A DNA stretch of 64,000 bases from contig JAJPIG010000028.1 of the NCBI GenBank assembly GCA_021324855.1, positions 1,579 through 65,578 on the forward strand, given 5' to 3'. The stretch is from Pseudomonadota bacterium. Lineage in GTDB: Bacteria > Desulfobacterota > Binatia > Binatales > Binataceae. Below are positions 1,459 through 63,890 of this stretch, piece after piece. Numbering within the stretch: the stretch's first letter is position 1; the number at the start of each line of letters is the position of its first letter. Under the pieces are notes generated by a model. It saw only the letters and a program-made list of their open reading frames with translations, was not told where the DNA came from and ran no database searches. A program made the position numbers and the translations under genes.

Positions 1459-1536
1459 TGGTGGACGCACCTGGACTCGAACCAGGGACCTCTTGCATGT
1501 GAGGCAAGCGCTCTAACCGGGCTGAGCTATGCGTCC
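1459..1536 (-). tRNA. tRNA-Val (anticodon CAC)
   Basis: Reverse complement GGACGCATAGCTCAG...CTTGC-CTCACAT-GCAAG...GGTTCGAGTCC...TGCGTCCACCA; cloverleaf with encoded CCA. Confidence 0.96.
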
Positions 1537-10727: not shown

Positions 10728-10779
10728 CGATTTCAGGATTCCCGGTGTTTTTCGCCGCTGCGAAATTAGCAGGCGGCGC

Positions 10780-21806: not shown

Positions 21807-21882
21807 GGGGCAGTAGCTCAGCTGGGAGAGCACTACGTTCGCAACGTAGGGGTCGAGGGTTCAAATCCCTTCTGCTCCACCA
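21807..21882 (+). tRNA. tRNA-Ala (anticodon CGC)
   Basis: GGGGCAG acceptor with G3:U70, anticodon arm CTACG-TTCGCAA-CGTAG, GGTTCAAATCC, CCA end; 76 nt. Confidence 0.96.
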
Positions 21883-47570: not shown

Positions 47571-47571
47571 T

Positions 47572-48549
47572 TCAGCGACCCCACGCCCACGCGAGCGTCG
47601 TACGCGTCATGACGAGCGCGGCAAGCATCAGGGCGCTCGCAGCCCACATCAGAATTCGCGACGTGGTGAGCGCCGGAATGTCTAGCGACACTTGCGGGCA
47701 GCCCATGCGCGGTCGAAACTCCAGTTCTCCGCCATAAGACGCCTGACCTCCTAGTTCCACACCGAGCGCACCCGCCATCGCCGCTTCCGGGTAGCCGGCG
47801 TTGGGGCTCTCATGCTTACGCGCGTCGGTGAGTATCGTGCGCAGGCTCTGGATGCCCCGGCCGGTCAGCACCGCGGCGCTAAGCGCGATAAACACCGCGG
47901 TCAAACGGGCGGGAATAAGATTCGCGATATCGTCGAGCCGCGCGGCGCATCTGCCGAAATACAGGTAACGCGAATCCTTGTAACCGATCATAGAGTCCAA
48001 CGTGTTAATCGCCTTGTAGACGATCGCTCCCACGGGACCGGCCACGGACAGAAAAAACAACGGCGCGATAATGCCGTCACTTGTGTTCTCGGCAACCGAT
48101 TCAATGGCCGCCCGAATTAGACCTTCGCGGTCCAACGCCTGCGGGTCGCGACCCACCAATGCAGGTATCGCGCGTCGCGCCGAAGCCTCGTCGGCCAGAA
48201 GCAGATGTCGCTCGACGCTTTGTGCGGCGTCGTTCAGTCCACGAGCGGCCAGCGTGGTCCACGCGATCAGAGTCGCGGCGAGCGCACCCAAAGGTGCGGC
48301 TATAGCCTGCAGGGTTCTCACGACCGTCCACACGGTCGCACCCGACAGCACAATAATCCCAGTTACGAGCAAGGCCCCGCCCACCAGTTCCTGACGCGCA
48401 CCGCCCCGCCGAATAAGTCGCTCCCCAAACGCCACGGCACGACCAATCAACCTGACCGGATGTGGGAGCCAATCGGGATCGCCGCACACAAGGTCGAGAA
48501 TCACGGCGGCGATGATTAACGGGGTCGGCAGGTAAAGAGCATAGCTCAC
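47572..48549 (-). CDS. cbiB: Adenosylcobinamide-phosphate synthase
   Basis: GDP..PHPV, VGRD, ESVAENTSDG, YKAINTLDSMIGY, DD.AN..PARL, SPNAG.PEAA.AGAL. Confidence 0.96.
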   Translation of the reverse strand: MSYALYLPTPLIIAAVILDLVCGDPDWLPHPVRLIGRAVAFGERLIRRGGARQELVGGALLVTGIIVLSGATVWTVVRTLQAIAAPLGALAATLIAWTTLAARGLNDAAQSVERHLLLADEASARRAIPALVGRDPQALDREGLIRAAIESVAENTSDGIIAPLFFLSVAGPVGAIVYKAINTLDSMIGYKDSRYLYFGRCAARLDDIANLIPARLTAVFIALSAAVLTGRGIQSLRTILTDARKHESPNAGYPEAAMAGALGVELGGQASYGGELEFRPRMGCPQVSLDIPALTTSRILMWAASALMLAALVMTRTTLAWAWGR

Positions 48550-50093
48550 GAGCGGACCCTGCCGTTCGAGAATGGCCCGATGGATTTGATTCCCAATAAA
48601 GCCGCAACCGTAGCCAGATCCAGGTTGGCCGCGAGAAGGTCTGCAAACCGGTCGTACGCACGCAGTCGCACCGTCCTGGCACTTTCGAAATCGCCGGCAT
48701 TCAGAGACCGCAGTCCCTTGCCTCGGCCGATCCGCGCGAGATACTGGCGGCGAAAGCCGGGCTCGTCGAACAGGCCATGAATCGAGGTGCCCAGAACGCG
48801 GCCATCGTCGGAGACGCTCCCCTCGGACTCGTCCACGATTCGTCCGTCTCGTTCCCGAATCCGAAACGCGACCGCTCCCGCATGTCGGCAGACGCGGCCG
48901 CTATGAATCTCGTAACCGGAAATTTCATTGCCGGAAGAAGGATCTATCGCCCGCACCAGGGCGGTAATCTTCTCATCGTCGAAAACTGTCTCGACATCGA
49001 GCAAACCCAGGCCCGAAGCCTCCGAGAGCGAGCTTTCAACATGCTCCGGGTCGGCGACGCGACGCCCTAACATCTGGTACCCGGCGCAGACTCCCAAGAC
49101 CTGCCCGCCGTCGCGGTAGTGATCGAGAATGCGCCACTCCCAACCGGACTCGCGCAGCCAGGCCAGATCGGCGATCGTGCTCTTGCTGCCGGGCAGACAC
49201 AGGACATCAAAGTCGCCTGCGCGCCGCGGGTCCTCAAGGTACTGCAAGTCAACTTCGGGCTCGCGCGCGAGCGCCTCGAAGTCGGTGTAATTGGCGATTC
49301 GGGGAAGACGCACGACGCCGATCTTGATAGGGCGCGTATCACGGGCATCACGTGCGCTCAGGCTTGCGCTGTCTTCGGCCGGAATGTCGAGCCCGTTCGC
49401 ATACGGCAGGACGCCGAGGATTTTGATGCCGGTTCGCTGCTCGATGATCTGCAAGCCGTCCGAGAGCAGTTCAAGATCACCGCGAAACTTGTTGATGACC
49501 AAGCCCTTTACACGATCGCGCTCGGAAGGCGATAGAAGCTCAACTGTCCCTACCAGCGCGGCCAGCGCGCCTCCCTTGTCGATATCGGTGACGATAAGCA
49601 CCGGAGCGTCCGCCAGTTCCGCCACGCGCCAGTTCACGACGTCGCGCTCGCGCAGATTAACTTCGGCTGCGCCGCCGGCGCCCTCGATGACGATTAATTC
49701 GAAATCCGAAGCCAGGCGTGTGTAGCTTTTGACGATCTCCGGCCACGCTCGTTCCCGATAATGGCTATGTTCACGAGTCGTCATGCGGAACTGTACGCGT
49801 CCGCCGATCACGACCTGGCAGCCGCGTTCGCTTTCGGGCTTCAGAAGAACGGGATTCATGTCCACAGTCGGCTCGAGGCCGCAGGCTTCGGCTTGGACCG
49901 CCTGGGCGCGCCCGATCTCGCCGCCGCCGGGACATACCGCCGCGTTGTTGGACATGTTCTGCGACTTGAACGGAGCGACGCGCATTCCAGCACGAGCGAA
50001 CAGCCTGCAAAGACCCGTGACCACCACGCTCTTGCCCACATCCGAGGCAGTCCCCATTATCATCAGGCTTCGGGCCTTTGCGGCAGTGTTCAT
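48546..50093 (-). CDS. cbiP: Cobyric acid synthase (CbiP/CobQ)
   Basis: GTASDVGKS, PFKSQNMS, NPVLLKP, EGAG, INKFRGD, LPGSK, GVCAGYQMLG, GYEIH, HGLF. Confidence 0.96.
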   Translation of the reverse strand: MNTAAKARSLMIMGTASDVGKSVVVTGLCRLFARAGMRVAPFKSQNMSNNAAVCPGGGEIGRAQAVQAEACGLEPTVDMNPVLLKPESERGCQVVIGGRVQFRMTTREHSHYRERAWPEIVKSYTRLASDFELIVIEGAGGAAEVNLRERDVVNWRVAELADAPVLIVTDIDKGGALAALVGTVELLSPSERDRVKGLVINKFRGDLELLSDGLQIIEQRTGIKILGVLPYANGLDIPAEDSASLSARDARDTRPIKIGVVRLPRIANYTDFEALAREPEVDLQYLEDPRRAGDFDVLCLPGSKSTIADLAWLRESGWEWRILDHYRDGGQVLGVCAGYQMLGRRVADPEHVESSLSEASGLGLLDVETVFDDEKITALVRAIDPSSGNEISGYEIHSGRVCRHAGAVAFRIRERDGRIVDESEGSVSDDGRVLGTSIHGLFDEPGFRRQYLARIGRGKGLRSLNAGDFESARTVRLRAYDRFADLLAANLDLATVAALLGIKSIGPFSNGRVRS

Positions 50094-50136
50094 CGCATTT
50101 CCGAATATCTATCCGGATTACCAATCGATTGTGTGG

Positions 50137-50670
50137 TCAGAACTCGATTCCTTTTTGCGCGCGAACCCCGTCGCGGTAGGGATGTTTCACGGCGCGCATT
50201 TCCGTGACCAGGTCGGCAAGCGCCACCAGTTCCGGATGCGCGGCGCGGCCCGTCAGGATTACGTGAAGTCCTTCACGCCGCGATTTCAGAGCCGCAACCA
50301 CTTCTTCAACCGGGACGAAGCCGTAGTTGACGACGTAGGTAATCTCGTCCAGCACGATTAGGTCGAAATCGTTGCCGTTGAGCCATTGACGCGCCGTTTC
50401 CCAAGCGGCAGCCGCCGCGGCCCGATCCCTGGCCAGGTCTTCGCTCTCCCAAGTAAAACCCCGCCCCATCGTAAGCCAGGTCAGATTTGACGTGTTCTCC
50501 CCTAGCCTGCGCTCGCCGGTACGCCATTTGCCTTTGATAAACTGCAGCATTCCAACCCGCATGCCGTGACCGAGCGCCCGGAATGCGACACCGAGCGCAG
50601 CCGTGGTTTTCCCCTTGCCGTCGCCCGTGTTTAGCAGAATGAGACCCTGCCTGCGCTTAGGTCCGTCCAT
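50137..50670 (-). CDS. cobO: Cob(I)yrinic acid a,c-diamide adenosyltransferase (CobO/BtuR)
   Basis: TGDGKGKTTAA, QFIKG, LDE, LTGR, ADLVTEM, KHPY, GIEF. Confidence 0.96.
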   Translation of the reverse strand: MDGPKRRQGLILLNTGDGKGKTTAALGVAFRALGHGMRVGMLQFIKGKWRTGERRLGENTSNLTWLTMGRGFTWESEDLARDRAAAAAAWETARQWLNGNDFDLIVLDEITYVVNYGFVPVEEVVAALKSRREGLHVILTGRAAHPELVALADLVTEMRAVKHPYRDGVRAQKGIEF

Positions 50671-51349
50671 CGGCAAACCCAAGAGTGGTTGCGTTTTTGC
50701 GACTTCTCGCGAACAAATATCCCGCCGCGATTCCGATTATCAGCCAGAACGTCAGCATGCTCGCGAGCGCCCGTATGATGAAAATCTGGTCGATAGCCGC
50801 AAGCGCCTGCGACGACGTGTGCGCCGGGGCAATCGGCAGCACGGTTCGAAATACCATCGGCGCCAGCGCAATAACCAAAATGCCGGCAAGCCTGGCCGGA
50901 CCCCTGGCCCTATAAATCGCGGCGATACCGACAATGGCCGATACCGCGGCCGCCAGCCATCCGATTTGCCTGAGCAGGAGCGGCGCCACCTCCATTCCGG
51001 GCACCGCCGGAGGCACGACCATCGCCGGCGCCGCGTGGAACACGGCAAAACCGGCGGCGCCGAAAAGCAAACCGGCCAGCCATCCTTCCCTGCCGGTCAG
51101 GGCGAAGACTCCGGTCAGAATCAGACCGAATCCAATTCCCACAAATACGTCGCCGAGCAATGTCGACAGCGAGCGCATCGGTTCACTCGCGAACGGATCG
51201 GGCGCCGATTCGTTGCTCATCGCCTTCTCGAAGGTTTCCGCCTTGTGGATCACCGGCAGAGTCAACGACCGTTGGACCAGGAACAGGCACAAGCCTGCGA
51301 ACACGCCGGCGATAAGCGCGGTCGAAATCATGCGGGAAAGCATGCGCAC
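50657..51349 (-). CDS. cbtA: Predicted cobalt transporter subunit CbtA
   Basis: Multiple TM, P.I..AE.FE, PP.VPG, RQ..W; directly after cbtB in the cob operon. Confidence 0.85.
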   Translation of the reverse strand: MRMLSRMISTALIAGVFAGLCLFLVQRSLTLPVIHKAETFEKAMSNESAPDPFASEPMRSLSTLLGDVFVGIGFGLILTGVFALTGREGWLAGLLFGAAGFAVFHAAPAMVVPPAVPGMEVAPLLLRQIGWLAAAVSAIVGIAAIYRARGPARLAGILVIALAPMVFRTVLPIAPAHTSSQALAAIDQIFIIRALASMLTFWLIIGIAAGYLFARSRKNATTLGFADGRT

Positions 51350-51562
51350 TCAGTGGCAGGGAAATCCCGCGGCGTGCCGGACATCATGCGCCGCCGCATG
51401 GAGAAGATCGGAGTGTGAAAATCCGACGACGAAGATTATCGCGGCTCCCAGCGTAATCGCCGCCATCGCCGCAATCATCGCCTTCGCAGTAGTCCCGATT
51501 CGGAGCTCCGCGTCTGCCCGAGTCTTCGCGATGCCCGAAACAGCCGATCTGCTGTTCACCAT
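51350..51562 (-). CDS. cbtB: Predicted cobalt transporter subunit CbtB
   Basis: One TM plus LHAAAHDVRHAAGFPCH C-terminal signature; SD GAGGAG. Confidence 0.92.
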   Translation of the reverse strand: MVNSRSAVSGIAKTRADAELRIGTTAKAMIAAMAAITLGAAIIFVVGFSHSDLLHAAAHDVRHAAGFPCH

Positions 51563-51605
51563 TTTCTTCTCCTCTTTGAAAGCCGTCCGTTGGCGAGCGG
51601 CGGAT

Positions 51606-52997
51606 TCACCCGTTTGTTTTTCCGCCGGCATGAACGCACGCCTCCACCATCGCCTGCGCCATGGTTGGATTCGACGCCCAGTGCGCGTGCACGTAGGAGG
51701 CGATAACGTTGTTCAGGCTAAAGCCCTCTTCGATCTCGGCGCCATCGCGTCTGCGCCGAATTGCAAAGGCTGGCGCTGTATTCCTCGACAGTGATTCGAG
51801 CCTGGAATATCGGAATTGATGGCCGCGAAAACCAAGTCCGGCAGGGCCGAGAATTGAGTCGTTCAGCGTCCGGGCTTCAACGTAGCCAAGCGCCTGCAGG
51901 CGTTCGCACATGATAGTCCGCGCCGGCACGACGCCGCACATCCGGTAAATACTTCCGTCCAGCGTCTGGAGCTCGGAACACAGGTACATCAGCCCGCCGC
52001 ATTCGGCGTAGATTACGCCGCCTCGCGCGGCAAACTCGGCGATCTGCTCTCTCATCGCGGCGTTGCGTTCAAGTTCGGCCGCATGCGCCTCGGGATAGCC
52101 GCCGCCCAGGTAGAGCCCGTCGACGACGGGCAATCGAACATCACGTATCGGAGAGAATCGAATCAGTCGTGCGCCTGCATTCTCAAGCCGCGTAAGATTA
52201 TCCTCGTAGTAAAAATGGAAGGCCTCGTCGTAGGCGACGCCGATGGCACATTTGCTTTTGCGTCGGATTGCCTGGGCGATCAGAGCATCGGTTTGCAGAG
52301 TTCCGGCTTTTGCCGCGAGCGAGATTATTTCGTCGAGATCGCACCATTCGTTGACAAGCTCGCCCCATCGCGAGAACAGCGCGTCAGCGACAGCAAGCTC
52401 ATCGGCGCTTCGCAGGCCAAGGTGCCGCTCCGGGAATTCCGCCGACGCCTCTTTCGGCAGCCCTCCAATCACTGGCGGGTGAGCGGACGCTTCCCGCAGG
52501 ATCTCAAGATGCCCTTTGCTTCCGACGCGATTGCAGATTAGCGCGACAACCCGCAATTCGCGGTCGAACTCGGCAAACCCGCGCCCCACGGCAGCGATTG
52601 AACCGGCCATCCCAGAGGCGTCAGCCACCAGCAGCACTGGCGCCTCAAGCCATTTTGCGATTTCCGCCGTCGATCCGCTCTGGTCAGTCGCCGACGCTCC
52701 GTCAAACAGGCCCATGACGCCTTCGATGATCGCGATATCGGCTCCAACTGAAGCCCGCACGAAAGTGGAAACAACCGCCTCGCGGCCCATCATCCAGCCG
52801 TCGAGGTTGTGCGAAGTCGCACCAGCGGCGCGTGCGTGATAGGTCGGATCCAAATAGTCCGGGCCGCATTTGAAGACCGCGACCTTCAACCCGCGCGAGC
52901 GAAGCGCGCGCACAAGTCCCACGGTGAAAGTGGTCTTGCCGACGCCGCTCGACGTGCCCGCGACGACGATCCGCGGTATTACAATTTCAGACCTCAT
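51606..52997 (-). CDS. cbiA: Cobyrinate a,c-diamide synthase (CbiA/CobB)
   Basis: SGVGKT, FKCGPDYLDP, EGVMGLFDG, ERHLGL, AFHFYY, GGGYPE, AECGGLMYL. Confidence 0.96.
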   Translation of the reverse strand: MRSEIVIPRIVVAGTSSGVGKTTFTVGLVRALRSRGLKVAVFKCGPDYLDPTYHARAAGATSHNLDGWMMGREAVVSTFVRASVGADIAIIEGVMGLFDGASATDQSGSTAEIAKWLEAPVLLVADASGMAGSIAAVGRGFAEFDRELRVVALICNRVGSKGHLEILREASAHPPVIGGLPKEASAEFPERHLGLRSADELAVADALFSRWGELVNEWCDLDEIISLAAKAGTLQTDALIAQAIRRKSKCAIGVAYDEAFHFYYEDNLTRLENAGARLIRFSPIRDVRLPVVDGLYLGGGYPEAHAAELERNAAMREQIAEFAARGGVIYAECGGLMYLCSELQTLDGSIYRMCGVVPARTIMCERLQALGYVEARTLNDSILGPAGLGFRGHQFRYSRLESLSRNTAPAFAIRRRRDGAEIEEGFSLNNVIASYVHAHWASNPTMAQAMVEACVHAGGKTNG

Positions 52998-54206
52998 TCA
53001 CCAGCTCACTCGGTTTTTAAGCTTCCCGTTCGCGGCGCGCGTCAGTTCAAGATTGGGAGCCACAAGCTTGCGAAGAGCCTGGATCGTGTTGGAAACCGCC
53101 GATTCGATACTATTAGCCCGCAGAGACAACACCTTTTGTGCTCCATGAAGCCGGGCAGCCGCTTCAGTCGTGGGGCCAAACGCAAGCATGGGAACAGCGC
53201 TCAATAACTTTCCGTTTTCCCCGCTGAGCAACCGGCGCGCTGCGCTTGAATTGGGAAGTACAATCAATTCGGGAAGTTCCCCGTCGGGTGCCTCCGTCCT
53301 GCACCAGTACTTGCAGGCGGGTATTCCTTGCTCCCACGCAGAATCAGGCGCAGCGCCGTCAGCATTGCCGCCGACCGCCACTCCCGGCCTCTCGAGTACG
53401 TAGGCGCCCAAGGCGCGAAGCTGAGCGGCGATCTTTGAAGGTCCCGGACCGGCGAGCGCGACGAGCACGCGGCGCCCCCGCAGCGGCATCTTTTCCAGCC
53501 ACAGGATTCGATCGCGCAGCGACACCACACTGCCCACGATGACCAGTGCGGGGTCGGACCGGCGCTTGGGCTCGACTTTGTCCGCAAGATTGGCCAGCGT
53601 TCCCGAAATCACAAGCTGTTTTGGCGTGGTGGCCGCCGCAATGTATGCCGCGGGTGTTGACGGGTCGTAGCCATCGGCAATCAGGCGGTCGAGGTTTTCC
53701 TTCAGCCGGTGGGCGGCCATGTACAGGACGACAGTTTCATGCGCGGGACCGGCGGGCTCCGCGCGATGGCCGGTTGCGAAAGTTACCCGCGGCGCGTGGC
53801 AGCGATGGGTCAGAGGGATGCCTGCGTAAGCGGCCGCACCCAAGGCTGCGGACACACCGGGGACAATTTCAAACGGAATCCCGGCGTCGGCCAATTCCTC
53901 GGCCTCCTCCGCGCCGCGGCCGAAGATCAACGGGTCGCCGGACTTCAACCGCACCACCACGCGCCCCGCCCGCGCGCGCTCGAGCACGAGCGGATGGAGA
54001 CGATAATCGATCTTTCCGCGCCCGTGCCGGCGGCCCACCGCGAGCAGCTCGGCGCCGGATGAAATGAGTGCAAGTATCTCCGGCGATACCAATTCGTCAT
54101 GGGCGACAACCTGCGCCGAGCGAATCAGTTCAAACGCTCGAAGGGTGAGCAGGTTCGGATCGCCCGGACCCGCGCCGACGAGATATACGATGCCCTGCGC
54201 GGACAT
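52998..54206 (-). CDS. cobA: Uroporphyrinogen-III C-methyltransferase with shortened HemD-like C-terminal domain
   Basis: VGAGPGDP.LLTL, RLKSGDP.IFGRG.EE, VPGVS; C-terminal LRGRRVLV...LRALGA and ..NSSAA...FGPTT segments. Confidence 0.88.
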   Translation of the reverse strand: MSAQGIVYLVGAGPGDPNLLTLRAFELIRSAQVVAHDELVSPEILALISSGAELLAVGRRHGRGKIDYRLHPLVLERARAGRVVVRLKSGDPLIFGRGAEEAEELADAGIPFEIVPGVSAALGAAAYAGIPLTHRCHAPRVTFATGHRAEPAGPAHETVVLYMAAHRLKENLDRLIADGYDPSTPAAYIAAATTPKQLVISGTLANLADKVEPKRRSDPALVIVGSVVSLRDRILWLEKMPLRGRRVLVALAGPGPSKIAAQLRALGAYVLERPGVAVGGNADGAAPDSAWEQGIPACKYWCRTEAPDGELPELIVLPNSSAARRLLSGENGKLLSAVPMLAFGPTTEAAARLHGAQKVLSLRANSIESAVSNTIQALRKLVAPNLELTRAANGKLKNRVSW

Positions 54207-54212
54207 TGGCGG

Positions 54213-54980
54213 TTACCCTGCTTTGACCTTCGCCCTGCGGAAACGATGGCTGAAGTCGGGGGCGTACAGGCGTGAATCGGCAAAATCCGTGGCGGTGAGC
54301 GTTCGGCCCACGATGATTATCGACTGTGTCTTTATCCCCGCCCGCCTGACCCGCTCCAGGATGTCTTTGAGCGTGCCAAGCACTATCTTCTGTTCAGGGC
54401 ACGTGGCCTTGTAAACGACGGCGACCGGGCAATCTGCGCCGTATTCGGGAATCAGCGACTCGCAGACTTCGCGCAACAATGTGATGCTTAGGAAAAGAGC
54501 CAGGGTTGCGTGATGGCGCGCAAGATCGCGAAGTTTCTCGCCCTCGGGCATCGGCGTTCGCCCCTCGGCCCGCGTCAAAATCACGGTCTGGCTGAGTTCA
54601 GGCAGGGTCAGCTCCCGGCGCAACGCCGCGGCCGCCGCGCTGAAGGACGACACGCCAGGCACCACCTCGTATTCAATCCCCAGCCGATCCATTCGCCGCA
54701 TCTGCTCCGCGGTCGAGCCAAAGATCAGCGGATCGCCGGTATGAACCCGGGCTACATCCTGACCGGCATCTCGAGCGGCCACGATTACTTCGATAATTTC
54801 ATCCAGCGTCATTCCTGAGGAGTCGATCACGGCGGCGTCGGCCCGGGCCATCGCGATTACGTCGCGCGGCACCAGCGAGCCGGTGTAGAGCACCACCGGG
54901 CAGGACGAGATCAGCTCAGCCGCGCGGATCGTCAGCAGCTTGGGGTCGCCCGGACCGGCGCCGATGATGTAAACCTTCAT
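54213..54980 (-). CDS. cbiF: Cobalt-precorrin-4 C11-methyltransferase (CbiF/CobM)
   Basis: IGAGPGDP, YTGSLV, RVHTGDP, ELTLPELSQTVILTR, SRLY...FSH.FR. Confidence 0.95.
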   Translation of the reverse strand: MKVYIIGAGPGDPKLLTIRAAELISSCPVVLYTGSLVPRDVIAMARADAAVIDSSGMTLDEIIEVIVAARDAGQDVARVHTGDPLIFGSTAEQMRRMDRLGIEYEVVPGVSSFSAAAAALRRELTLPELSQTVILTRAEGRTPMPEGEKLRDLARHHATLALFLSITLLREVCESLIPEYGADCPVAVVYKATCPEQKIVLGTLKDILERVRRAGIKTQSIIIVGRTLTATDFADSRLYAPDFSHRFRRAKVKAG

Positions 54981-54988
54981 CGTTCCTC

Positions 54989-55405
54989 CTAAAGGCAGCG
55001 CAGCACCGTATCCCGGACGATGTTCCAGATCGGCGCGGGAATCTCACCCAGCCAGCGCACATCGACGGGCTGCTTCAGAGGGAACTCCGCCTGTCCGCTC
55101 GGATCCATCAACAGACGCCACAGCCGCTCGCTGACCGAACCATTGCGCTCGATAAGCAAGCGCTCAGCAAGCGTGGCAGCCAGCGATTCGTCCTCCAGAT
55201 CGAGCGTCAGGCAGGGCGGGGATATCTCGACCGGGCGCCGTGGAGTCAATGCAATGTAAGGACGCTTGAGCGCGTCGATTGCCTCGGGCGGCTCGAAGCC
55301 GGCAGCTTCGAAATCGCATGGCTCCTTCGTATTCCCGATCAGAAAGAACCTGCCGCCAGTCTCGGCGAGAATCGCGCCGGCCAATCGTCCAACCCGAGCC
55401 ATCAT
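54989..55405 (-). CDS. Hypothetical protein within the cob operon
   Basis: 138 aa; overlaps the cbiH stop and ends 8 nt before cbiF; GNTKEPC, ERNGSVSERLW, C-terminal RCL. Confidence 0.8.
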   Translation of the reverse strand: MMARVGRLAGAILAETGGRFFLIGNTKEPCDFEAAGFEPPEAIDALKRPYIALTPRRPVEISPPCLTLDLEDESLAATLAERLLIERNGSVSERLWRLLMDPSGQAEFPLKQPVDVRWLGEIPAPIWNIVRDTVLRCL

Positions 55406-56247
55406 TCAACCTCCGGATGGTCGGCCGGCGGTTCCAGCACCAGAGAACGGCCCGGCCGTTGACCCGGCAGTGGGTTGCCGTCGGCGGTGTATTTGTTCGA
55501 ATAGCCGCGCGGCGTAACCATGTAACCCTCAAACACGAAAGTGTTGCTTGATCCCACGATCACCGTGGTGAGCATCCCGATCTCGTAGTCGAGAAAATGG
55601 CTGAGATCGGTAAGCACAGTTTGCTGCAGCTTCCGATATGCGCTCTTCACAAGCGCGACCGGCGCTGTCGGCTGACGATACTTGCTGATTATTGAATGCG
55701 CTTCGACGATCTGGCGCGTGCGCCGGCCGCTTGCCGGATTGTAAAGTCCAATCACGAAATCGGCGGCCGCTGCCGCTTCGATTCGGCGCGCGATCACAGG
55801 CCACGGCGTCAGCAGATCCGACAGCGAGATGGCGCAGAAATCGTGGACCAGCGGCGCGCCCATCAGCGAGGCGCACGAACTGAGCGCAGTGATGCCGGGT
55901 ATGATTTGCAGCTCGGGCGAATCGCCGCGTTTCCATCCGATATCGCGCAGCACCTGGAACACCAGCCCAGCCATCCCGTACACGCCGGCGTCGCCCGACG
56001 AAATCAAAGCCACCCTGGCGCCTGCTCGCGCGCGTTCGACCGCCGCCCGCGCCCTGCCAATCTCCTCCGTCATCCCCGTGCGCACGATCTCTTTGCCGCG
56101 AATCAGATCGGCCACAAGCTTGATGTAGGTCGTGTAGCCAACAATCAACTCAGCGTCGGCAATCGCACGGGTTGCGGCAGTAGTCGCGTGGTCGTGCGCA
56201 CCCGGCCCAATTCCTACGACGTACAGAACGCCCTTGGCTTCAGACAT
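55402..56247 (-). CDS. cbiH: Cobalt-precorrin-3 C17-methyltransferase (CbiH/CobJ)
   Basis: VVGIGPG, VGYTTY, SSGDAGVYGMA, HDFCAISLSDLLTPW, LYNP.S, TPRGY. Confidence 0.96.
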   Translation of the reverse strand: MSEAKGVLYVVGIGPGAHDHATTAATRAIADAELIVGYTTYIKLVADLIRGKEIVRTGMTEEIGRARAAVERARAGARVALISSGDAGVYGMAGLVFQVLRDIGWKRGDSPELQIIPGITALSSCASLMGAPLVHDFCAISLSDLLTPWPVIARRIEAAAAADFVIGLYNPASGRRTRQIVEAHSIISKYRQPTAPVALVKSAYRKLQQTVLTDLSHFLDYEIGMLTTVIVGSSNTFVFEGYMVTPRGYSNKYTADGNPLPGQRPGRSLVLEPPADHPEVE

Positions 56248-57394
56248 CGGCAACCTCCATAGGTCGCTTTGCGAACGGGATGCGCGCAATTGCTACCGTC
56301 ATCGAGCGCCCGGCGCCCGGCTCGGTATAGACCTGCTTGGGAACGAGCAGCCGCTCGGCGCCGGCTCCGAGCAGCGCCGCGGGTTCTGCTACGCCGCGGG
56401 TGCCGACGTAACGCCTGACGGTTTCGGAAGGGTTCTCAATTCCCGGTACGGCGTCGAGCTCGTCGGCCGAATGGAATTCGAGCGGCCATCCGTGACGCTC
56501 GGCGAGCGCCGCGATCGCCGGCTCGCCGCGCTTTTTGTCGATAGTGACGAGCGTCCTCACCGATTTGAGCGAAAGCCGATTGGCTTCGAACGCCTTCGCG
56601 ACCCCCCTCTCCACCAGCTCTTGCGGCGTGTTTTTGTCGCAACCGATTCCGACCACGAGGCTCCTCGGGCGATAGATCACCGCCTTTCCCCAGTGTCGCG
56701 GATGCGTCTGGCGAAAATCGCGGTCTGAGGCGACCAGGAGAATCTCGAACGCGCACGGGTCAACGTCGTCCAGGCTCGTTGAGTAGCGAACCCCGGGCGG
56801 CAACGGCCGATCCAACGGCCACCAGTCGGGTTCTCCGGTTTCTTGCACGAACATTACCGGCGCGGCGTTGACCACGGCGGCGCATCCGCGTGTCACGTTG
56901 CGATCGGGATCGTCGAGCGTCCAGCCCAGCTCACGTCCGAGGATGTCCACCGTGAGGGTGCCAATCGCGTCGGAGGCGGTCGTGACCACGGCTTGGGCAC
57001 TCAGCGCGACGGCGACACGCTCGGTGAAAACGTTGCCGCGCCCGACGTGCCCGGAAAGGACGCAGACGGCGAAGCGCGCGCCGTCGTCCACGCAAATCAC
57101 GGCCGGGTCGGTCTTCTTGTCGCGCATGAGCGGCGCGAGCATCCTTACCACTGCGCCGATGCTGACGATGAACACGTGGCAGTCATAAGCGAAGAATGTT
57201 TCGGCAAGCGCCGGCCCCATCGGCAGCTTCAGCGCCAGGGCGTTCACCATCCGGGGGTCCTCGCGCGCCGCCGACAGCAGTTTTTCCGAAACGTAGATGT
57301 CGGCGTCAGTGAGGGACTGTGCCAGCCGGGCGGCGATTTCCAGCCCATGGCGGGTAATGGCGTAAATTGCAAAAGGCTTGCGCGGCACCTTCAT
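56240..57394 (-). CDS. cbiG: Cobalt-precorrin-5A hydrolase
   Basis: GAVVR..AP...K..DPAV, LSGHVG..N, VTTASD, VVGIGC, GVAEPAAL. Confidence 0.93.
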   Translation of the reverse strand: MKVPRKPFAIYAITRHGLEIAARLAQSLTDADIYVSEKLLSAAREDPRMVNALALKLPMGPALAETFFAYDCHVFIVSIGAVVRMLAPLMRDKKTDPAVICVDDGARFAVCVLSGHVGRGNVFTERVAVALSAQAVVTTASDAIGTLTVDILGRELGWTLDDPDRNVTRGCAAVVNAAPVMFVQETGEPDWWPLDRPLPPGVRYSTSLDDVDPCAFEILLVASDRDFRQTHPRHWGKAVIYRPRSLVVGIGCDKNTPQELVERGVAKAFEANRLSLKSVRTLVTIDKKRGEPAIAALAERHGWPLEFHSADELDAVPGIENPSETVRRYVGTRGVAEPAALLGAGAERLLVPKQVYTEPGAGRSMTVAIARIPFAKRPMEVADV

Positions 57395-58170
57395 CCCACT
57401 TGCGGCTGCGCCAATACGGCATTCGGAGAGACCTCGCCTGCAAGCACGCCGCTGCGCTCGCGGCGCGTGACCACCACCATCGCGAAGCAGTCGCCGCGCT
57501 CGGTGCAAACCTCTTGCAGGTCGGCGGCGACTCTCTGCTCCGGCATCGTGGCCTTGGCCACGTAGGCCGCTTTGTGCAGAAGCCCCGTGCGCTTCAGTGC
57601 GTCGACGATCTTCGGCATCTCGGAGCCGATTTTCATGAGAATCGTCGTATCGAAGCTGTTCAGGATGGTGACCAGATCATCGACGCCGTAGTTCGCCGGA
57701 ATAATTGCAATTCGCTCCAGCCCATCGGCGAGCGGGACACCGAGCACGGCGGGCACGGCGGCTATTGATGACACGCCGGGAACCACTTCGACGCGAATGC
57801 CCGGCCATCGACGCTGCGCCTCGCACAGTAGGTAGCCGAACGTGCTGTACAATGAGGGATCGCCCTCGGTGGCGAACGCAACGGAGCGGCCGTTTTCAAG
57901 CCGTTCGCCGATTTTGGCAAAAGCAGTGTCCCACGCCTGACGCAGCCGCACTGGTTCCTTGCTCATCGGGAAGGTTAGAAAAAGTCGTTCCTGATCACTC
58001 CTTTTGCCGATGACCGGTTCGATTATTCGCCAGGCCATCGACGCGCCGTAATCCGAGCTGCGTGGCAGTGCAATAACGTCGGCATGCTTGAGCGTTTCGA
58101 TCGCGCGGAGAGTTAGAAGGTCCGGCGCACCGGGGCCAACCCCGACGCCATACAGCGTTCCATATCTCAT
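57391..58170 (-). CDS. cbiL: Cobalt-precorrin-2 C20-methyltransferase (CbiL/CobI)
   Basis: LYGVGVGPG, FPM, TEGDPSLYSTF, VPGVSS, LMK. Confidence 0.94.
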   Translation of the reverse strand: MRYGTLYGVGVGPGAPDLLTLRAIETLKHADVIALPRSSDYGASMAWRIIEPVIGKRSDQERLFLTFPMSKEPVRLRQAWDTAFAKIGERLENGRSVAFATEGDPSLYSTFGYLLCEAQRRWPGIRVEVVPGVSSIAAVPAVLGVPLADGLERIAIIPANYGVDDLVTILNSFDTTILMKIGSEMPKIVDALKRTGLLHKAAYVAKATMPEQRVAADLQEVCTERGDCFAMVVVTRRERSGVLAGEVSPNAVLAQPQVG

Positions 58171-59420
58171 AGCGAGCTGCCTCCGGTTGATGGTTTTTCG
58201 GCGGCGAATATCTGGATCGGATTGAGCGCCTCAAAACGTAGATAGCGGGCAAGCGGTTGAGCGCGCGAAACCTGCAGCAGAGTCACCTCCGGAACGATCC
58301 CGCGCTTTCGCAAGGCGGCATGGATCTCCGCTGAGTTTTCCAGCGTGATTGCGTTTGCCACTAGTCGGCCGCCGGGACGCAACCGCTCCAGTGCGGTTTC
58401 AACGATCTCGTCCATGCTTCCCTTGCTTCCGCCGACAAACACGGCATCGGGCGCTTCGATATCGGCAAGAACTTCCGGGGCGCGTCCGGCGATCACGCGG
58501 ACATTGTCAATCGCATGGGCGCGCAGATTCTCGCGGCAGATTTCAACCCCCTCAGGATCCATTTCAATCGCGTACACACGTCCGTGTGGCGCAAGCATCG
58601 CCGCCTCTATCGAAACCGAGCCCGAGCCGGCTCCAATATCCCAGACCACGCTGTCGCACCGTATCCGCATCGCGGCCAGCGAAAGCAACCGCACCTCGCG
58701 CTTTGTGATGAGGCCTTTTTTTGGCATGCGCTTGGCGAAGTCATCCTCATGGATGAAGGGAATCGCCGGCGGGGGCGTCCAAGCCGGCTCTTCGCGGACA
58801 AGGAGCAAGACATTGAGCGGCTCGATATCCATACAGTTGGCTAGTTCGTTGATTGAAAACGTCCTGACCCGTTCGTCGGGGCCGGCGAGATTTTCGCAAA
58901 CCCAGGCCCGCCACCCGGTCTGACCGTGCTCAAGCATCGAGGCCGCGAGGCGCGCCGGCGTGTTCTCGGGATCGGTGAAAACGCCGGCCTTGGCGCAGTT
59001 TCGAAGACGTGTAAGAAAGCCCTCCGGGCTTCGTCCGTGCAGGGAGATGAAAACCGCGTCGTCCCATTTCATCCCGGCGCGAGCGAATGCCCATTGCATC
59101 GAGCTTGGATGGGGCAGTATCTCCACGTTCTCCGCGCCGAGCCGCTTTATCACCGCGGCCCCAACGCCGAAGAACATTGGATCGCCGGAAGCGAGAATGC
59201 AGACGTTGTTCTCGTTGGCGGCTTCGGCGATGGATTCGAGCGCGCGCGCCAAGCCATCCTTGAGAACGATCCGTTCGCCCTCGAATTGGGGAAAAAATGC
59301 GAGATGCCGCTCGCCGCCCGCGAGTACACGCGCGGCCGACACCGCGCCGATCGCGCGGCTCGACAGCCCAGCGCAGCCATCGTCGCCGATTCCCACAATG
59401 GTGATTGGACGCTGCCTCAT
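58167..59420 (-). CDS. cbiET: Bifunctional cobalt-precorrin-7 C5-/6B C15-methyltransferase (CbiET/CobL)
   Basis: VGIG, GGERHL, LASGDP.FFG, SLHGR, TKREVR, WDIGAGSGSV, PDAVFVGG. Confidence 0.94.
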   Translation of the reverse strand: MRQRPITIVGIGDDGCAGLSSRAIGAVSAARVLAGGERHLAFFPQFEGERIVLKDGLARALESIAEAANENNVCILASGDPMFFGVGAAVIKRLGAENVEILPHPSSMQWAFARAGMKWDDAVFISLHGRSPEGFLTRLRNCAKAGVFTDPENTPARLAASMLEHGQTGWRAWVCENLAGPDERVRTFSINELANCMDIEPLNVLLLVREEPAWTPPPAIPFIHEDDFAKRMPKKGLITKREVRLLSLAAMRIRCDSVVWDIGAGSGSVSIEAAMLAPHGRVYAIEMDPEGVEICRENLRAHAIDNVRVIAGRAPEVLADIEAPDAVFVGGSKGSMDEIVETALERLRPGGRLVANAITLENSAEIHAALRKRGIVPEVTLLQVSRAQPLARYLRFEALNPIQIFAAEKPSTGGSSL

Positions 59421-60067
59421 TGCTCGGTCTCCCTGGCAAGAAGGAGAAGCGCGTGAATTATCGCAACCGCGATCGCGCTGCCGCCCTTGCGTCCGCGCGC
59501 GACGATATGTGGAACGTCAAGGCCGAGGGCGGCCTCTTTGGACTCGGCCGCCGACACGAAACCGACGGGCACGCCAATTACCAGCGCCGGGCGGATTCCT
59601 TCCTTCTCGACCAGCCGAACGGTCTCGAGCAGCGCCGTGGGCGCGTTGCCGATAGCGACGATCGCGCCATCGAGGACGCCCTGGCGCTGCGCCTTGCGCA
59701 TCGCCTCTATCGCGCGGGTGCTGTTATTGGCTTTCGCCGCGGCGATTACGTCATCGTCGGAGATGAAGCAGTGCGTCGAGCATCCGTAAAACTTCAGACG
59801 ATCCTCGTTGAGACCGGCGGTGATCATTTTGACGTCCACTACGATCGGGGCGCCGCCGCGTAGCGCCGCCGTGCCCGCGCTGATGGCGTCGGGATGAAAA
59901 CGCATCAAATCCTTGAACTCGAAATCCGCGGTAGCATGAATGACCCGACGGACGATCTGCCATTGCGCGGGGTCGAAGTCGTGGCGGCCCGCTTCGCGGT
60001 CGATGATGGCGAAACTACCATCTTCGATGTTGCGACCCAGCGCGGTCATCTGACGCATATCGCTCAT
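59417..60067 (-). CDS. cbiC: Cobalt-precorrin-8 methylmutase (CbiC/CobH)
   Basis: IE..SF.II, RVIHATAD, IGNAPTAL, PVGFV.AAESK, GRKGGS. Confidence 0.96.
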   Translation of the reverse strand: MSDMRQMTALGRNIEDGSFAIIDREAGRHDFDPAQWQIVRRVIHATADFEFKDLMRFHPDAISAGTAALRGGAPIVVDVKMITAGLNEDRLKFYGCSTHCFISDDDVIAAAKANNSTRAIEAMRKAQRQGVLDGAIVAIGNAPTALLETVRLVEKEGIRPALVIGVPVGFVSAAESKEAALGLDVPHIVARGRKGGSAIAVAIIHALLLLARETEQ

Positions 60068-61188
60068 GTTGCTTGCTCCAATCCGATGGCGCCGGGCGGG
60101 TAATGGCTGAGCAGCCGGCCGTCGAAGTCCACCATCCAGGCCTGAACTTCAAGGTCTCCACCGGCATGACGCGTTCCATTCTCGACAACGCGACAGCAGA
60201 CAAGCGACGCGATCGCGAGCTTTTCCGCCGAGCACAGCTCGAGCACGCGGCGGGCGGTCGCCGCACTACGAATTTCCGCGCACAGGGCGTCACTCGCGCC
60301 CAGTTGCGCGGCGAAGCTCGCGAGCAGCTCCATGTTGACCTCGGAGCCGGCCGCATGAGTCTGCATTCGTCCGTCCGCCATCTTTGACAACTTGCCGATC
60401 ATTCCCACGATGATCGCCCGCCTGAGCCCGCGGCGCTCGCAATGCTTGAGCGCGGTGCCCACGAAGTCGCCCATCTGGATGAAGGCGTCCTCAGGCAACC
60501 GAGGGAACAGCTTCATGGCGTATGCCTCCGACTTTCCGCCGGTCGTCAATACCAGGTCCGTAAGGCCGCGTTCGGCAGCCACGTCGATCGCCTGCACCAC
60601 GCTCGCCTTGAACGCTGCGGTGGAATATGGGCGGACGATACCGGTCGTGCCGAGTATCGAGATTCCGCCGAGCAGGCCGAGCCGGGCATTGATGGTCTGT
60701 TTTGCCATTTCCTCGCCGCCGGGCACGCTGATCATCACTACGGCCCCTCTGCGCGCGCTGCCGGCAAGCTCCTCTTCGACCATCTCAACGATGTTCCGGC
60801 GCGGAGGCGCTGTAATCGACGGACCGCCGACTTCCAGACCCAGTCCGGGCTTGGTCACGATCGCAACGCCGGCGCCGCCGCGCACCTCGACGCCGGGCGC
60901 GTCTCGCAGTTCGACTCGGGCCACCAGCTCCGCGCCGTGAGTGCAATCCGGATCGTCGCCGGCATCTTTGATCACGCTGCAAACGGCATCGGCATCCGAA
61001 CGTTCGCAGCGCTTGAGCGCAAACGTTACCTTCATGCGGTTGGGCAAAGTGGTTTCGATTTCGGTGAGCGTAACGTTCCTTACCAGGCAGCGGGCGGCAG
61101 CTTTCGCCGCCGCGGCCGCGCAGGCACCGGTCGTAAATCCGGTCCTGAGACCTCTTCGATTTCGCGGTGGGACGCTGGTTTCAGCCAT
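60064..61188 (-). CDS. cbiD: Cobalt-precorrin-5B C1-methyltransferase
   Basis: LRTGFTTGACAAAA, KDAGDDPDCTH, N.RLG..GGISILGTTG.V.PYS, GDFVG, GKLSK. Confidence 0.96.
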   Translation of the reverse strand: MAETSVPPRNRRGLRTGFTTGACAAAAAKAAARCLVRNVTLTEIETTLPNRMKVTFALKRCERSDADAVCSVIKDAGDDPDCTHGAELVARVELRDAPGVEVRGGAGVAIVTKPGLGLEVGGPSITAPPRRNIVEMVEEELAGSARRGAVVMISVPGGEEMAKQTINARLGLLGGISILGTTGIVRPYSTAAFKASVVQAIDVAAERGLTDLVLTTGGKSEAYAMKLFPRLPEDAFIQMGDFVGTALKHCERRGLRRAIIVGMIGKLSKMADGRMQTHAAGSEVNMELLASFAAQLGASDALCAEIRSAATARRVLELCSAEKLAIASLVCCRVVENGTRHAGGDLEVQAWMVDFDGRLLSHYPPGAIGLEQAT

Positions 61189-61936
61189 CACTGAGCCGCG
61201 ACCCTGCGATTGGGATTCTGCGCTGCGGATTGTTAAAGAACGCCTCGAGGCGGATGTGTTCGCGCGGCACACCGGCGTCCGCCAAATGATCGCGCATTGG
61301 GTAAATCAGCGCTCCGTCGCCAGCCAGATAGGCCCAATCGGGCCGCTGCGTTGCCAGGACGCGGTCGACCGTGGCACGAGCGCAGGCCAAGCGCTCCGGA
61401 TGTCCAACCGCAGGTGCTGCAACGGTTTCGAAGCTGACGCGTTCCGCTTTTATCGACTCGCGGGCGAAGGAGGTCGGGAGAAAGTAGTCGTCCGCCTCAA
61501 CGAACCAGACCACGGTCGTGTCGGCTGCTGGCTCGCGGAACAGGCGTCCGCGCAGCAGGCCAAGTGCCGCCGTGATCCCTGTGTCCGTGGCAAAAACGAG
61601 CTTTGAGCCCGAAGTCGTCTCGGGAAGAAATTTTCCCCACGGTCCGCTGAAGGACACCTCGGCGCCGACGGCGATCCGATGCATGAAGTTCGAGCCGGGG
61701 CCCTCGCCAATGCGGCGCACGGCCAGTTGAAATTTGGTTTGTTCAGCGTCACTGGAAACGATCGAATAAGCCCGTTTCGCCAGTTTGCCGCCGTCGAGCT
61801 CGATGCCGGTGTTGACGATAATGTACTGGCCACCGGTAAACCTGAGCTCGCCCTCTGCCATCGCGAGGCTGAGCAGCCGAGCCTGCGGTCCGATTCGTTC
61901 GGCCCCGATTACGTGCGCAAGCCGGGCATCAGCCAT
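61181..61936 (-). CDS. FNR-family FAD/NAD(P)-binding oxidoreductase
   Basis: GGQY, RAYSI.S (RxYS FAD motif), GPGS, SGPWG.F, ATDTGI (variant of GTGI), LAG, EAFF. Confidence 0.85.
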   Translation of the reverse strand: MADARLAHVIGAERIGPQARLLSLAMAEGELRFTGGQYIIVNTGIELDGGKLAKRAYSIVSSDAEQTKFQLAVRRIGEGPGSNFMHRIAVGAEVSFSGPWGKFLPETTSGSKLVFATDTGITAALGLLRGRLFREPAADTTVVWFVEADDYFLPTSFARESIKAERVSFETVAAPAVGHPERLACARATVDRVLATQRPDWAYLAGDGALIYPMRDHLADAGVPREHIRLEAFFNNPQRRIPIAGSRLSDG

Positions 61937-61938
61937 CT

Positions 61939-62313
61939 TCAGTCCACCGGGTAGATTTCGTGTACGAAGTCGTGCATCTGTTCAAGGTCATTGAATAAGC
62001 GAGTCAAAGCGTCGAGCTGGTTTGAAAGATCAAGTTCGATTTTCTTGGCGAGGATGATCAGGCTCCTCAAATAAGGGAGCTTCGGGTCACTGGGATCGGT
62101 CGTCGCGACCCCCTGCTCGAGCGCCGACACCGCCGCTTCGTAAAAGCGGCACAGGCTTTTCAGGTCGTCCGCGTCGCACATCGAATGGACCGGTCCCGGC
62201 GCGGTGGCGCCGTCGCCCAGCTCCGCGAGTTCGTGTTGCCGCGCGGCTTCGTCGTTGACGCCAAGCAACCGCATCAGCCCAAGTCGCAACGCCGCTATCT
62301 CATTACAAGCCAT
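61939..62313 (-). CDS. DUF3209-like protein
   Basis: MACNEIAALRLGLM..LG N-terminus, YLRSL, DL..MHD; resembles DUF3209 from memory. Confidence 0.75.
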   Translation of the reverse strand: MACNEIAALRLGLMRLLGVNDEAARQHELAELGDGATAPGPVHSMCDADDLKSLCRFYEAAVSALEQGVATTDPSDPKLPYLRSLIILAKKIELDLSNQLDALTRLFNDLEQMHDFVHEIYPVD

Positions 62314-62325
62314 TTCATTCCGCCT

Positions 62326-63510
62326 TCACTGCATGATCGCGTCGATCAGCCGTCCAACCAATCGATCGCCGACCAAGTGACAATCCACCAGTTCATTCGC
62401 ATCCGCCGGGGTCACGCCCCGGTACCAGATTCCATCCGGATAAACGGCAACGGTTGGTCCCTCGCCGCATCGGCCCATGCATGATGTTCTGGTGACTCTG
62501 ATTTCGCGCTCGCGCCCGACGCGCCTGAGCGCTCTGCGAAGTTCCGCCATTAGCGCGATACTGCCGCGCGACGCGCAGTCGACATTTCCGCACACCAGGA
62601 CATGCCTGCGCATCGGCCGATGCGCATGCGCGTGCGGCACGGCCTGCGCGTGAGTTTCCATATGGCGAGCGCTCCATAACAAAGAACGGAATCCGCCGAC
62701 ATTCTCGGCGATCGCGCCGATGGGCACCCGATATTGGCAATTGTCGCAGGGAAGTGACGCCCGCTCGCTCAACGCCTCGTCGATACGCTCATCGAGGGCT
62801 TCGAGCAGTTTCGGATGGACGCCGAGATGGGGCGCGAGAGTCGTCCTGATCCAGGGATAACGCGCGTGGAACTCCTTAACCTGTGCCTCGAGTTGGGAGA
62901 TCAGGCGGCCAGCAAACAGAAAGTACGGGACCACCAGGATTTTTTTTGGACGTACACGAGCAATCAACTCGATCGCTTCGGTGAAAAGCGGCCTGGTGAT
63001 GCCAATAAAAGCTGGCGCCACCCATCCGAAGCCGTGCCCCTCTCCGAGCAGCCTCGCCAACTTGAAAAAATCGCCATTCGCATCGGGGTCGCTGGAGCCA
63101 CGTCCGACGATTACGAGCGCGGTCTGCTTCGCGTCGGCAAGGCCATTGCCAGCTTCATGCGCTCTTTGGTAGGCCAACTCCACCATCGCGGGATGCACAC
63201 CAAGCACGCGTCCGGCCGTGAATCGCACGGCGGGAAACTTGCGCCGCGCGCCTGCAAGCGCCAGCGGGATGTCGTTTTTCACATGACCGGCAGTGAACAG
63301 AAAGAACGGCGCCACCACGACTCGCTCATTATGGCTCGCCATTGCGTCGAGCCCGCCAGGAAGCGAGGGTTCGGCCAGTTCCACGTACGCGTGCTGGACA
63401 TCGAAATTGGTCCGCCGCTTGCGCACGTAATCAACCAGCCCTTCGAACTCTTGGTTAGCGGTTCGGTCACGGCTTCCGTGGCCGACAACCAAGATGCCCG
63501 TGCGTTGCAT
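62326..63510 (-). CDS. cbiX: Long CbiX cobaltochelatase fused to a thioredoxin-like [2Fe-2S] ferredoxin (CbiW-like)
   Basis: VGHGS, YVELAEP, GHVKNDIP, GRGSSD, PYFLF, CDNC, His-rich linker, then VCGNVDC...SCMGRC.EGP..VYPDG.WY. Confidence 0.92.
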   Translation of the reverse strand: MQRTGILVVGHGSRDRTANQEFEGLVDYVRKRRTNFDVQHAYVELAEPSLPGGLDAMASHNERVVVAPFFLFTAGHVKNDIPLALAGARRKFPAVRFTAGRVLGVHPAMVELAYQRAHEAGNGLADAKQTALVIVGRGSSDPDANGDFFKLARLLGEGHGFGWVAPAFIGITRPLFTEAIELIARVRPKKILVVPYFLFAGRLISQLEAQVKEFHARYPWIRTTLAPHLGVHPKLLEALDERIDEALSERASLPCDNCQYRVPIGAIAENVGGFRSLLWSARHMETHAQAVPHAHAHRPMRRHVLVCGNVDCASRGSIALMAELRRALRRVGREREIRVTRTSCMGRCGEGPTVAVYPDGIWYRGVTPADANELVDCHLVGDRLVGRLIDAIMQ

Positions 63511-63588
63511 CTTGCTATCCCCTGAAAATTGCGCACGACGCCACATTCCACGACACGGCATCGGCACCTTCCAGAAAAGATCGCGGCA

Positions 63589-63622: not shown

Positions 63623-63682
63623 CGTTCAGGCCGGAACAGGGCTGATGGACTCTCCGTTTCCACGCGGAGACTTACGTCCGAA

Positions 63683-63869
63683 CGTTTTGGGTAGGTCTCC
63701 TGGCTCGTGGTTTCAGAGAGCCTCCAGACTCTCTTCACCGCCCTTCAGCCTTCCCCAAGTCAACACGACCTGAGTGGTTCTAATGAAAGGCGGCTTCCCA
63801 CTTACAGTGGCGGGACCGCGCCGGTCTTTCACCGGCTTCCCTGTTATGCCCTAACGGGCACCCAAAACG
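63683..63869 (-). ncRNA. Cobalamin riboswitch
   Basis: Minus strand: P1 CGTTTTGGGT/ACCCAAAACG, AACAGGGAAGCCGGTGAAAGACCGGCGCGGTCCCGCCACTGT, B12 box GAGCCAGGAGACCT; upstream of the cob operon. Confidence 0.96.
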
Positions 63870-63890
63870 GTCAACAACTACGATGTAATC

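Follow-up and report, generated by a model that had tools for sequence, protein, structure and literature searches.

The 64,000-nucleotide stretch analysed here (the window; contig JAJPIG010000028.1 of the Binataceae assembly GCA_021324855.1) carries on its minus strand a riboswitch-led operon for cobalamin (vitamin B12) synthesis of the cobalt-early type. Our subject is one step of this pathway and two adjacent genes, cbiD and the gene of a flavoprotein with the fold of the FNR superfamily (FNR-like protein). CbiD methylates C1 to give cobalt-precorrin-6A, which CbiJ then reduces using NADH (available parts of PMC7242693 and PMC8123684). The first-pass annotation had seen no CbiJ or CobK in the operon and had proposed the FNR-like protein as its non-orthologous replacement or, alternatively, as an electron donor. 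The genes follow the riboswitch in this order:

63673..63880, minus strand: cobalamin riboswitch at the head of the operon (Rfam RF00174, 110.4 bits)
62326..63567, minus strand: cbiX, cobaltochelatase with two CbiX domains and a fused thioredoxin-like [2Fe-2S] ferredoxin (PF01903, E 3e-55; PF01257, E 7e-8)
61939..62313, minus strand: DUF3209 protein (PF11483, E 1.5e-46)
61181..61936, minus strand: FNR-fold flavoprotein (FNR-like), 251 amino acids (PF00970, E 4e-12, its sole Pfam match at E <= 0.01)
60064..61188, minus strand: cbiD, 374 amino acids, Asp241 type with the motif Q-x-G-D-F (PF01888, E 5e-88; NF000849, 473 bits)
55402..60067, minus strand: cbiC, cbiET, cbiL, cbiG, cbiH (Pfam/NCBIfam)
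54989..55405, minus strand: orphan of 138 amino acids (no Pfam/NCBIfam match)
46491..54980, minus strand: cbiF, cobA, cbiA, cbtB, cbtA, cobO, cbiP, cbiB, cobD-like (Pfam/NCBIfam)

Rfam, Pfam and NCBIfam bear out the operon content first described, from riboswitch to cobD, and add the orphan and cbtBA to it. The cbiX coordinates are those of the longest open reading frame (ORF), and the start is likely at 63507. TIGR01140 is the top match of the cobD-like gene at 260 bits, below the cut-off of 291, and cobS lies outside the operon at another place in the genome. The DUF3209 protein has homologues in Thermus (TTHB059, PDB 2EHW) and Haloferax (HVO_B0053), and its gene accompanies CbiX-ferredoxin across clusters.

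We searched the whole source genome for CbiJ/CobK (PF02571; EC 1.3.1.106 / 1.3.1.54) and found none: the best Pfam match had an E-value of 0.4, and an unfiltered profile of six CbiJ proteins, run over 22,300 six-frame ORFs, gave no CbiJ (best E 0.019). What had been noticed in the operon thus extends to the assembly; as this is 96.2% complete, the absence of CbiJ is likely, short of proven. Absence of cbiJ from most delta-proteobacteria has been noted since 2004 (PMC545781, available part). In our sample of the same phylum, CbiD was present in 107 of 251 genomes. Among the 80 searched of the 106 CbiD-positive genomes other than G000, nine had CbiJ, none had a member of the FNR-like family and 71 had neither gene. 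Within the bacterial family of the source organism, six of 24 genomes encode CbiD, five of them together with the FNR-like gene and one (G021) with neither this gene nor CbiJ. The controls Thermus, Sulfolobus and Methanosarcina have CbiD and no CbiJ match, and the cluster stretches read from Thermus, Manganitrophus, Methylibium, Methylomonas, Thiodictyon and Acidovorax contain neither CbiJ nor an FNR-like gene.

To look for a replacement reductase shared by the CbiJ-less Desulfobacterota clusters, we took 20 stretches with 130 unassigned ORFs and scanned the 49 that we judged to be inside or close to the operons. We rejected this idea: one flavin reductase of the geranylgeranyl-reductase family and one Fe-S protein turned up, nothing was common to the clusters, and in 13 or 14 of the 15 CbiJ-less stretches none of the scanned ORFs was a redox gene. 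The flavin reductase is encoded after cbiH in the CbiJ-less cbi operon of G132 (L092:8724-9884) and is a further candidate to supply the absent reduction. Thioredoxin-like [2Fe-2S] ferredoxins that stand free of other domains are found repeatedly in cbi clusters without CbiJ, both proteobacterial ones and those of Manganitrophus (L111, L133, L135, L090).

The absence of CbiJ tracks residue 241 of CbiD better than it tracks the FNR-like gene. Five diagnostic columns emerged from a defining set of 39 CbiJ-less and 12 CbiJ-positive CbiD sequences (six rows come from plasmids, and there CbiJ-less refers to the stretch read). Column 241 was the cleanest, with Asp in 39/39 CbiJ-less and Asn in 11/12 CbiJ-positive sequences; CbiD with Asp241 usually also has Thr216, Ser220 and Arg313. 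Rows lying off the expected clade follow the residue, L091 having Asp and no CbiJ, and L136 having Asn and a fused CbiJ. In the Desulfobacterota sample, all 36 CbiJ-less sequences (35 genomes) had Asp and all four CbiJ-positive ones Asn. In Spirochaetota, Asn was found in 16/16 sequences with CbiJ, and 15 Asp and two Asn in those without it (G087 belonged to the defining set, G391 was left out, and G400, G401, G411 and G414 were already in earlier sets). In the phylum of G051, where 10 of the 37 CbiD-positive genomes were tested, the counts were nine Asn of nine with CbiJ and one Asp of one without. Overall, the further CbiD sequences from three phyla gave Asn in 29/29 with CbiJ and Asp in 52/54 without; the rule held in 81/83, a count that includes kin that are not independent and four genomes overlapping earlier sets. 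CbiJ was found at E 1e-44 or better wherever CbiD was of the Asn type in the searches of these phyla (own phylum, Spirochaetota, phylum of G051), with the exceptions of G461 and G475. Every member of the FNR-like family that we checked pairs with an Asp-type CbiD. We regard the CbiD switch as a sharper lead than the FNR-like gene.

The FNR-like protein belongs to a real, B12-specific and uncharacterised flavoprotein family of a CbiJ-free pathway variant. A scan of GTDB genomes gave 75 FNR-like loci. Of these, 73 contain cbiD; L084 and L086, which do not, match only weakly and in part, and we excluded them from later counts. Among the 73 loci, CbiX is present in 70, DUF3209 in 65, the ferredoxin domain in 64 and the orphan in 54, and cbiD is adjacent (<=150 nucleotides) in 52; several of the misses are contig ends. 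The hosts include Binataceae, Nitrospira, Myxococcota, Elusimicrobia, Leptospira, Bdellovibrionota, Acidobacteriales, Omnitrophota and Planctomycetales, and the closest named homologues of the window protein are from Candidatus Binataceae. The overlap of 8 nucleotides between the FNR-like gene and cbiD (ATGGCTGA) is real, as first reported, and depends on the C-terminal tail of the FNR-like protein (residues 240-251), which is modelled with a predicted local distance difference test score (pLDDT) below 50. We reject it as a sign of coupling: this tail is lineage-specific, and in relatives the two genes are merely near each other.

A profile search gave 158 representatives of the family at E <= 1e-30. 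Seven full-length FNR-CbiD fusions occur among the 150 representatives listed, all with Asp-type CbiD parts; the 14 longer members scanned include these seven, two partial fusions and one FNR-CbiG_C. The FNR-like domain is N-terminal of CbiD, the same order as in the CbiJ-CbiD fusion of Parabacteroides. CbiJ itself shares no sequence similarity with the FNR-like protein, which has no PF02571 match; it takes NADH directly (PMC7242693, available part), whereas the window protein has an FNR fold and its family is dispensable in some lineages. Five Elusimicrobia loci have neither DUF3209 nor the orphan, and keep the FNR-like gene beside a CbiX without the ferredoxin domain; each of these genomes has an unlinked similar ferredoxin or domain. 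DUF3209 was rejected as a partner of the FNR-like protein: Thermus and Haloferax have DUF3209 without the FNR-like protein, and in the five Elusimicrobia genomes with an FNR-like gene no DUF3209 was found.

Structure prediction (pLDDT 89.9) gave the two-domain FNR fold, a flavin adenine dinucleotide (FAD)-binding beta-barrel and an alpha/beta domain. By VIA-align, the nearest structures are oxygenase reductases and bacterial FNRs: T4moF (Z 23.2, root-mean-square deviation 2.8, 216 residues aligned), BenC, bacterial Fpr and the reductase domain of flavohaemoglobin align at Z 20-23 with 16-22% identity. The FAD motifs of this superfamily are retained across 131 representatives: R55-x-Y57-S58 (R 125/131, Y 122/131, S 118/131 plus nine T), G79-x-x-S82, G98-P-W-G101 (within G-P-x-G, G98 in 126/130, P99 in 127/130, G101 in 129/130) and, at the C-terminus, E231-x-F233. 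The protein therefore probably binds FAD and transfers electrons. Unlike these reductases, it occurs in cbi clusters only, has no NAD_binding_1 match, and lacks the canonical NAD(P)H motifs G-G/T-G-I-x-P and C-G. On this nicotinamide side G-T-G-I-x-P has become D-T-G-I-T-A, with D118 in place of the first Gly (119/130) and A123 in place of Pro (108/130), and C-G has become [ASVC]-G-D, residue 205 being variable (the canonical Cys in 13/131) and followed by G206 and D207 (123/131). The atypical ATDTGI and LAG (LAGDG) remarked on at first are thus family-wide traits. W144 and R182 are also conserved, as are K51 and K54, which align with the K-x-x-K lysines before R-x-Y-S of plant-type FNR. A basal Methylomirabilota member (L082:3351-4502), fused to CbiG_C and beside a basal CbiD, has a near-canonical ATGTG and a PF00175 match and may show the ancestral state; because it keeps both, descent of the family from a canonical reductase is suggested. 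Complex prediction of the FNR-like protein with CbiD and FAD scored 0.00 in both runs, with the verdict 'no answer', and was counted neither way.

Leptospiraceae show both retention and loss. In a set of 101 genomes, an FNR-like orthologue (E < 1e-50) is present in 30 of the 33 with full cbiD and in none of the 67 without, and is absent from the one with partial cbiD. This co-occurrence and the association with cbi loci indicate that the gene serves B12 synthesis. It is under purifying selection in Leptospira (non-synonymous rate, dN, 0.024-0.038; synonymous rate, dS, 0.35-0.42). In G400, G401 and G411 it was lost by clean deletion, with the ring-synthesis genes still open and no CbiJ; a quick tree gives at least two separate losses. 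The layout cbiX-DUF3209-oxidoreductase-cbiD, mentioned for Leptospira in the first-pass annotation, is confirmed there. Its oxidoreductase, LB_163, is of the same family as the window protein (33-35% identity), in the same gene order. The available part of PMC4758666 tabulates LB_163 within cob I/III under the name 'flavodoxin reductase', notes that two strains have it deleted and attributes losses of this kind to subculture; that part assigns it no function and does not discuss the missing CbiJ.

CbiJ was found in none of the 73 genomes with an FNR-like locus, the positive controls Synechococcus and Methanocaldococcus being matched. The anticorrelation that had been suggested as a check therefore exists; it carries little weight, because the background of CbiJ is only 9/80. 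Moreover, in quick CbiD trees the FNR-like clusters are nested within a larger CbiJ-less CbiD clade, so that the anticorrelation amounts to few independent events. After the own-phylum control we rejected it as proof of replacement. Nor does the FNR-like gene occur wherever CbiD is present and CbiJ absent: it is found in 0/71 such genomes of the phylum, and is missing from G021, G400, G401, G411 and the Thermus cluster. Replacement of CbiJ by the FNR-like protein is plausible and is not the general answer.

We propose instead that the operon specifies a variant cobalt-early pathway that runs without CbiJ, and that this independence would belong to the widespread Asp241 subtype of CbiD and not to the FNR-like protein. 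Flavin or Fe-S carriers would bring to the cobalt-precorrin, at or beside the CbiD step, the electron pair that NADH gives up to CbiJ, and the proton would come from an acidic residue; Asp241 may have a role here. The FNR-like protein would be a dedicated donor acquired by one branch of operons: it would bind FAD, accept electrons from ferredoxin or, in a non-canonical manner, from NAD(P)H, and hand them on at the CbiD step. The gene could be lost because housekeeping reductases could stand in for its product; the 71 of 80 genomes with neither gene and the clean losses in Leptospiraceae fit such dispensability. That Asp-type routes draw their reducing electrons from such carriers, with the FNR-like protein as a dedicated but replaceable donor, has in our estimate close to an even chance, on the lower side of it. 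A bolder form is more doubtful: many cobalt-early producers (most Desulfobacterota sampled, Leptospira, Nitrospira, myxobacteria, Thermus) might follow a CbiJ-free route that has gone unrecognised, with Asp-type CbiD coupling methylation at C1 to ring reduction by means of a partner's electrons. The remodelled FNR would then be the first such dedicated partner that can be identified, and a single residue of CbiD would predict the route.

Several observations weigh against this proposal. The Asp/Asn split mainly follows two deep CbiD clades (again in quick trees) and may simply mark lineage, with no role of its own; the structure 1SR8 aligns poorly around residue 241. Azospirillum combines Asp241 with a CobK-type gene, in a different cluster layout, and the divergent Asn-type CbiD of G461:C13 and G475:C2 (L219, L220) come from genomes with no CbiJ match. 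Two members of the FNR-like family are fused to CbiG_C instead of CbiD, and fusions may reflect adjacency only. The motifs that would mark NAD(P)H as the electron source of the protein are replaced. The deletion junctions of the three Leptospiraceae losses differ (30, 100 and 12 nucleotides), and dN/dS is raised in the G400-G411 pair, both downstream of the step (0.163, 95% 0.123-0.217, vs 0.078-0.095 in gene-bearing pairs) and upstream of it (0.109 vs 0.074-0.087); hence, the gene may have been lost recently, from a pathway in decay. Selection in this pair is still purifying, and relaxation is strongest where a CbiJ-like role predicts it. As the losses may be old or recent, this relaxation cuts both ways.

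It is also conceivable, if unlikely, that the FNR-like protein reduces cobalt-precorrin-6A by itself, as a free-standing enzyme not orthologous to CbiJ, other CbiJ-less lineages using other unlinked replacements. The lack of CbiJ in all 73 genomes, the position and fusion at CbiD, as in CbiJ, the retention of the gene in the five Elusimicrobia and the pattern of relaxation after its loss all fit; the near-invariant D118 and D207 at the nicotinamide site could donate protons, and one CbiJ-less cluster has a different flavin reductase (L092). The rarity of CbiJ in the background, the nesting of the family in an already CbiJ-less clade, the three clean losses that left every ring gene open and the scarcity of redox genes in CbiJ-less Desulfobacterota stretches speak against it. 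The electron-donor alternative fits better than replacement, except that it had been tied to the CbiX-fused ferredoxin. In that specific form, the protein would be an NAD(P)H:ferredoxin reductase that serves this [2Fe-2S] domain early in the pathway, when cobalt is inserted and CbiH contracts the ring. The domain is present in 64/73 loci, K51 and K54 match lysines which we take to be ferredoxin-docking, and thioredoxin-like ferredoxins recur in CbiJ-less clusters; yet the NAD(P)H-binding motifs are exactly the part replaced, the five Elusimicrobia keep the gene beside a ferredoxin-less CbiX (their unlinked ferredoxins notwithstanding), and none of the 14 long members scanned is an FNR-CbiX fusion. 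We judge it improbable.

Slightly less probable than a 6A reductase is a cobalt-redox helper, a metal-chelate reductase resembling siderophore-interacting proteins (SIPs; PF04954; 6GEH, 7LRN) that keeps cobalt intermediates as Co(II) under oxygen and is not tied to C18-C19 reduction. Many hosts are aerobic (Nitrospira, Sorangium, Leptospira), and an accessory role would account for the losses. SIPs share the FNR fold, with acidic residues in the same two loops (ATDT parallels GDET, and AGDG parallels AGES), take Foldseek ranks 1-2, and reduce ferric chelates using bound flavin (PMC11965169, available part). However, VIA-align places the SIP (Z 20.7) below oxygenase reductases and FNRs (23.2 for T4moF), identity is 18-24%, the C-terminal motif differs, iron-uptake context is lacking, and the protein has no PF04954 or PF08021 match (only PF00970 at E <= 0.01), so that we do not class it as a SIP. 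Aerobic Thermus without the gene and the preference of fusions for CbiD also count against this role. Lastly, the CbiJ gap might be an artefact, a highly diverged or unassembled CbiJ being present: most genomes are drafts, and the two Asn-type genomes also lack a match. This is very improbable given the closed chromosomes among the 73 negatives (Nitrospira moscoviensis, Sorangium, Archangium, Cystobacter), the strong matches that the same search gives beside Asn-type CbiD, and a gap already in print (PMC545781, available part).

For haloarchaea, where the gap was noted again, the available part of PMC8305020 suggests a non-canonical order and names the DUF3209 gene, identified through PMC12091111 (available part), as a candidate. 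Haloferax resembles the window in having CbiX-ferredoxin and DUF3209 (HVO_B0053); it differs in that CbiD is absent too and no FNR-like gene lies in the cluster. Beyond the entry for Leptospira, which gives no role, we found no proposal of a role for the FNR-like family or for the CbiD subtype in the literature searched, in which few subscription papers were covered and an earlier mention is possible. The missing precorrin-6 reductase is now reduced to two cheap tests, on a specific flavoprotein family and on a CbiD switch that gives CbiJ status correctly in 81/83 cases. If our proposal is true, genome-based calls of B12 producers should not require CbiJ beside an Asp-type CbiD, and engineered B12 pathways would gain an alternative step.

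The orphan lies directly 3' of cbiH in the 54 loci that have it and is fused to CbiH in Leptospira, Bacteriovoracales and another Bdellovibrionota genome. Its model is confident (pLDDT 92.6), with invariant G10, G24, P29, R87, S92, R94, W118, P123, W127, L135 and C137. Atlas matches stayed under 0.9 (DUF4238), and a fold search found no chain at Z >= 5 among 48,161, which does not establish a new fold. ChuX/HutX-like haem-utilisation domains, possible tetrapyrrole carriers, occur free-standing after the FNR-like gene in an Elusimicrobia locus (L023:10732-11121) and fused to CbiH in Methylomonas (L133:10307-11668). ORFs resembling these in size and look lie between the FNR-like gene and cbiD in Nitrospira and some Myxococcota (L025, ~10727-11100). 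DUF7676 proteins adjoin cobalt/B12 genes in Elusimicrobia loci (L023:4132-4716; L029:6888-7442). In the window, cobA (52998..54206, minus strand) has a C-terminal extension of ~165 amino acids without a Pfam match, relatives' cobA being longer (~490 amino acids), and two tRNA genes lie at 1462..1536 (minus strand) and 21807..21879 (plus strand).

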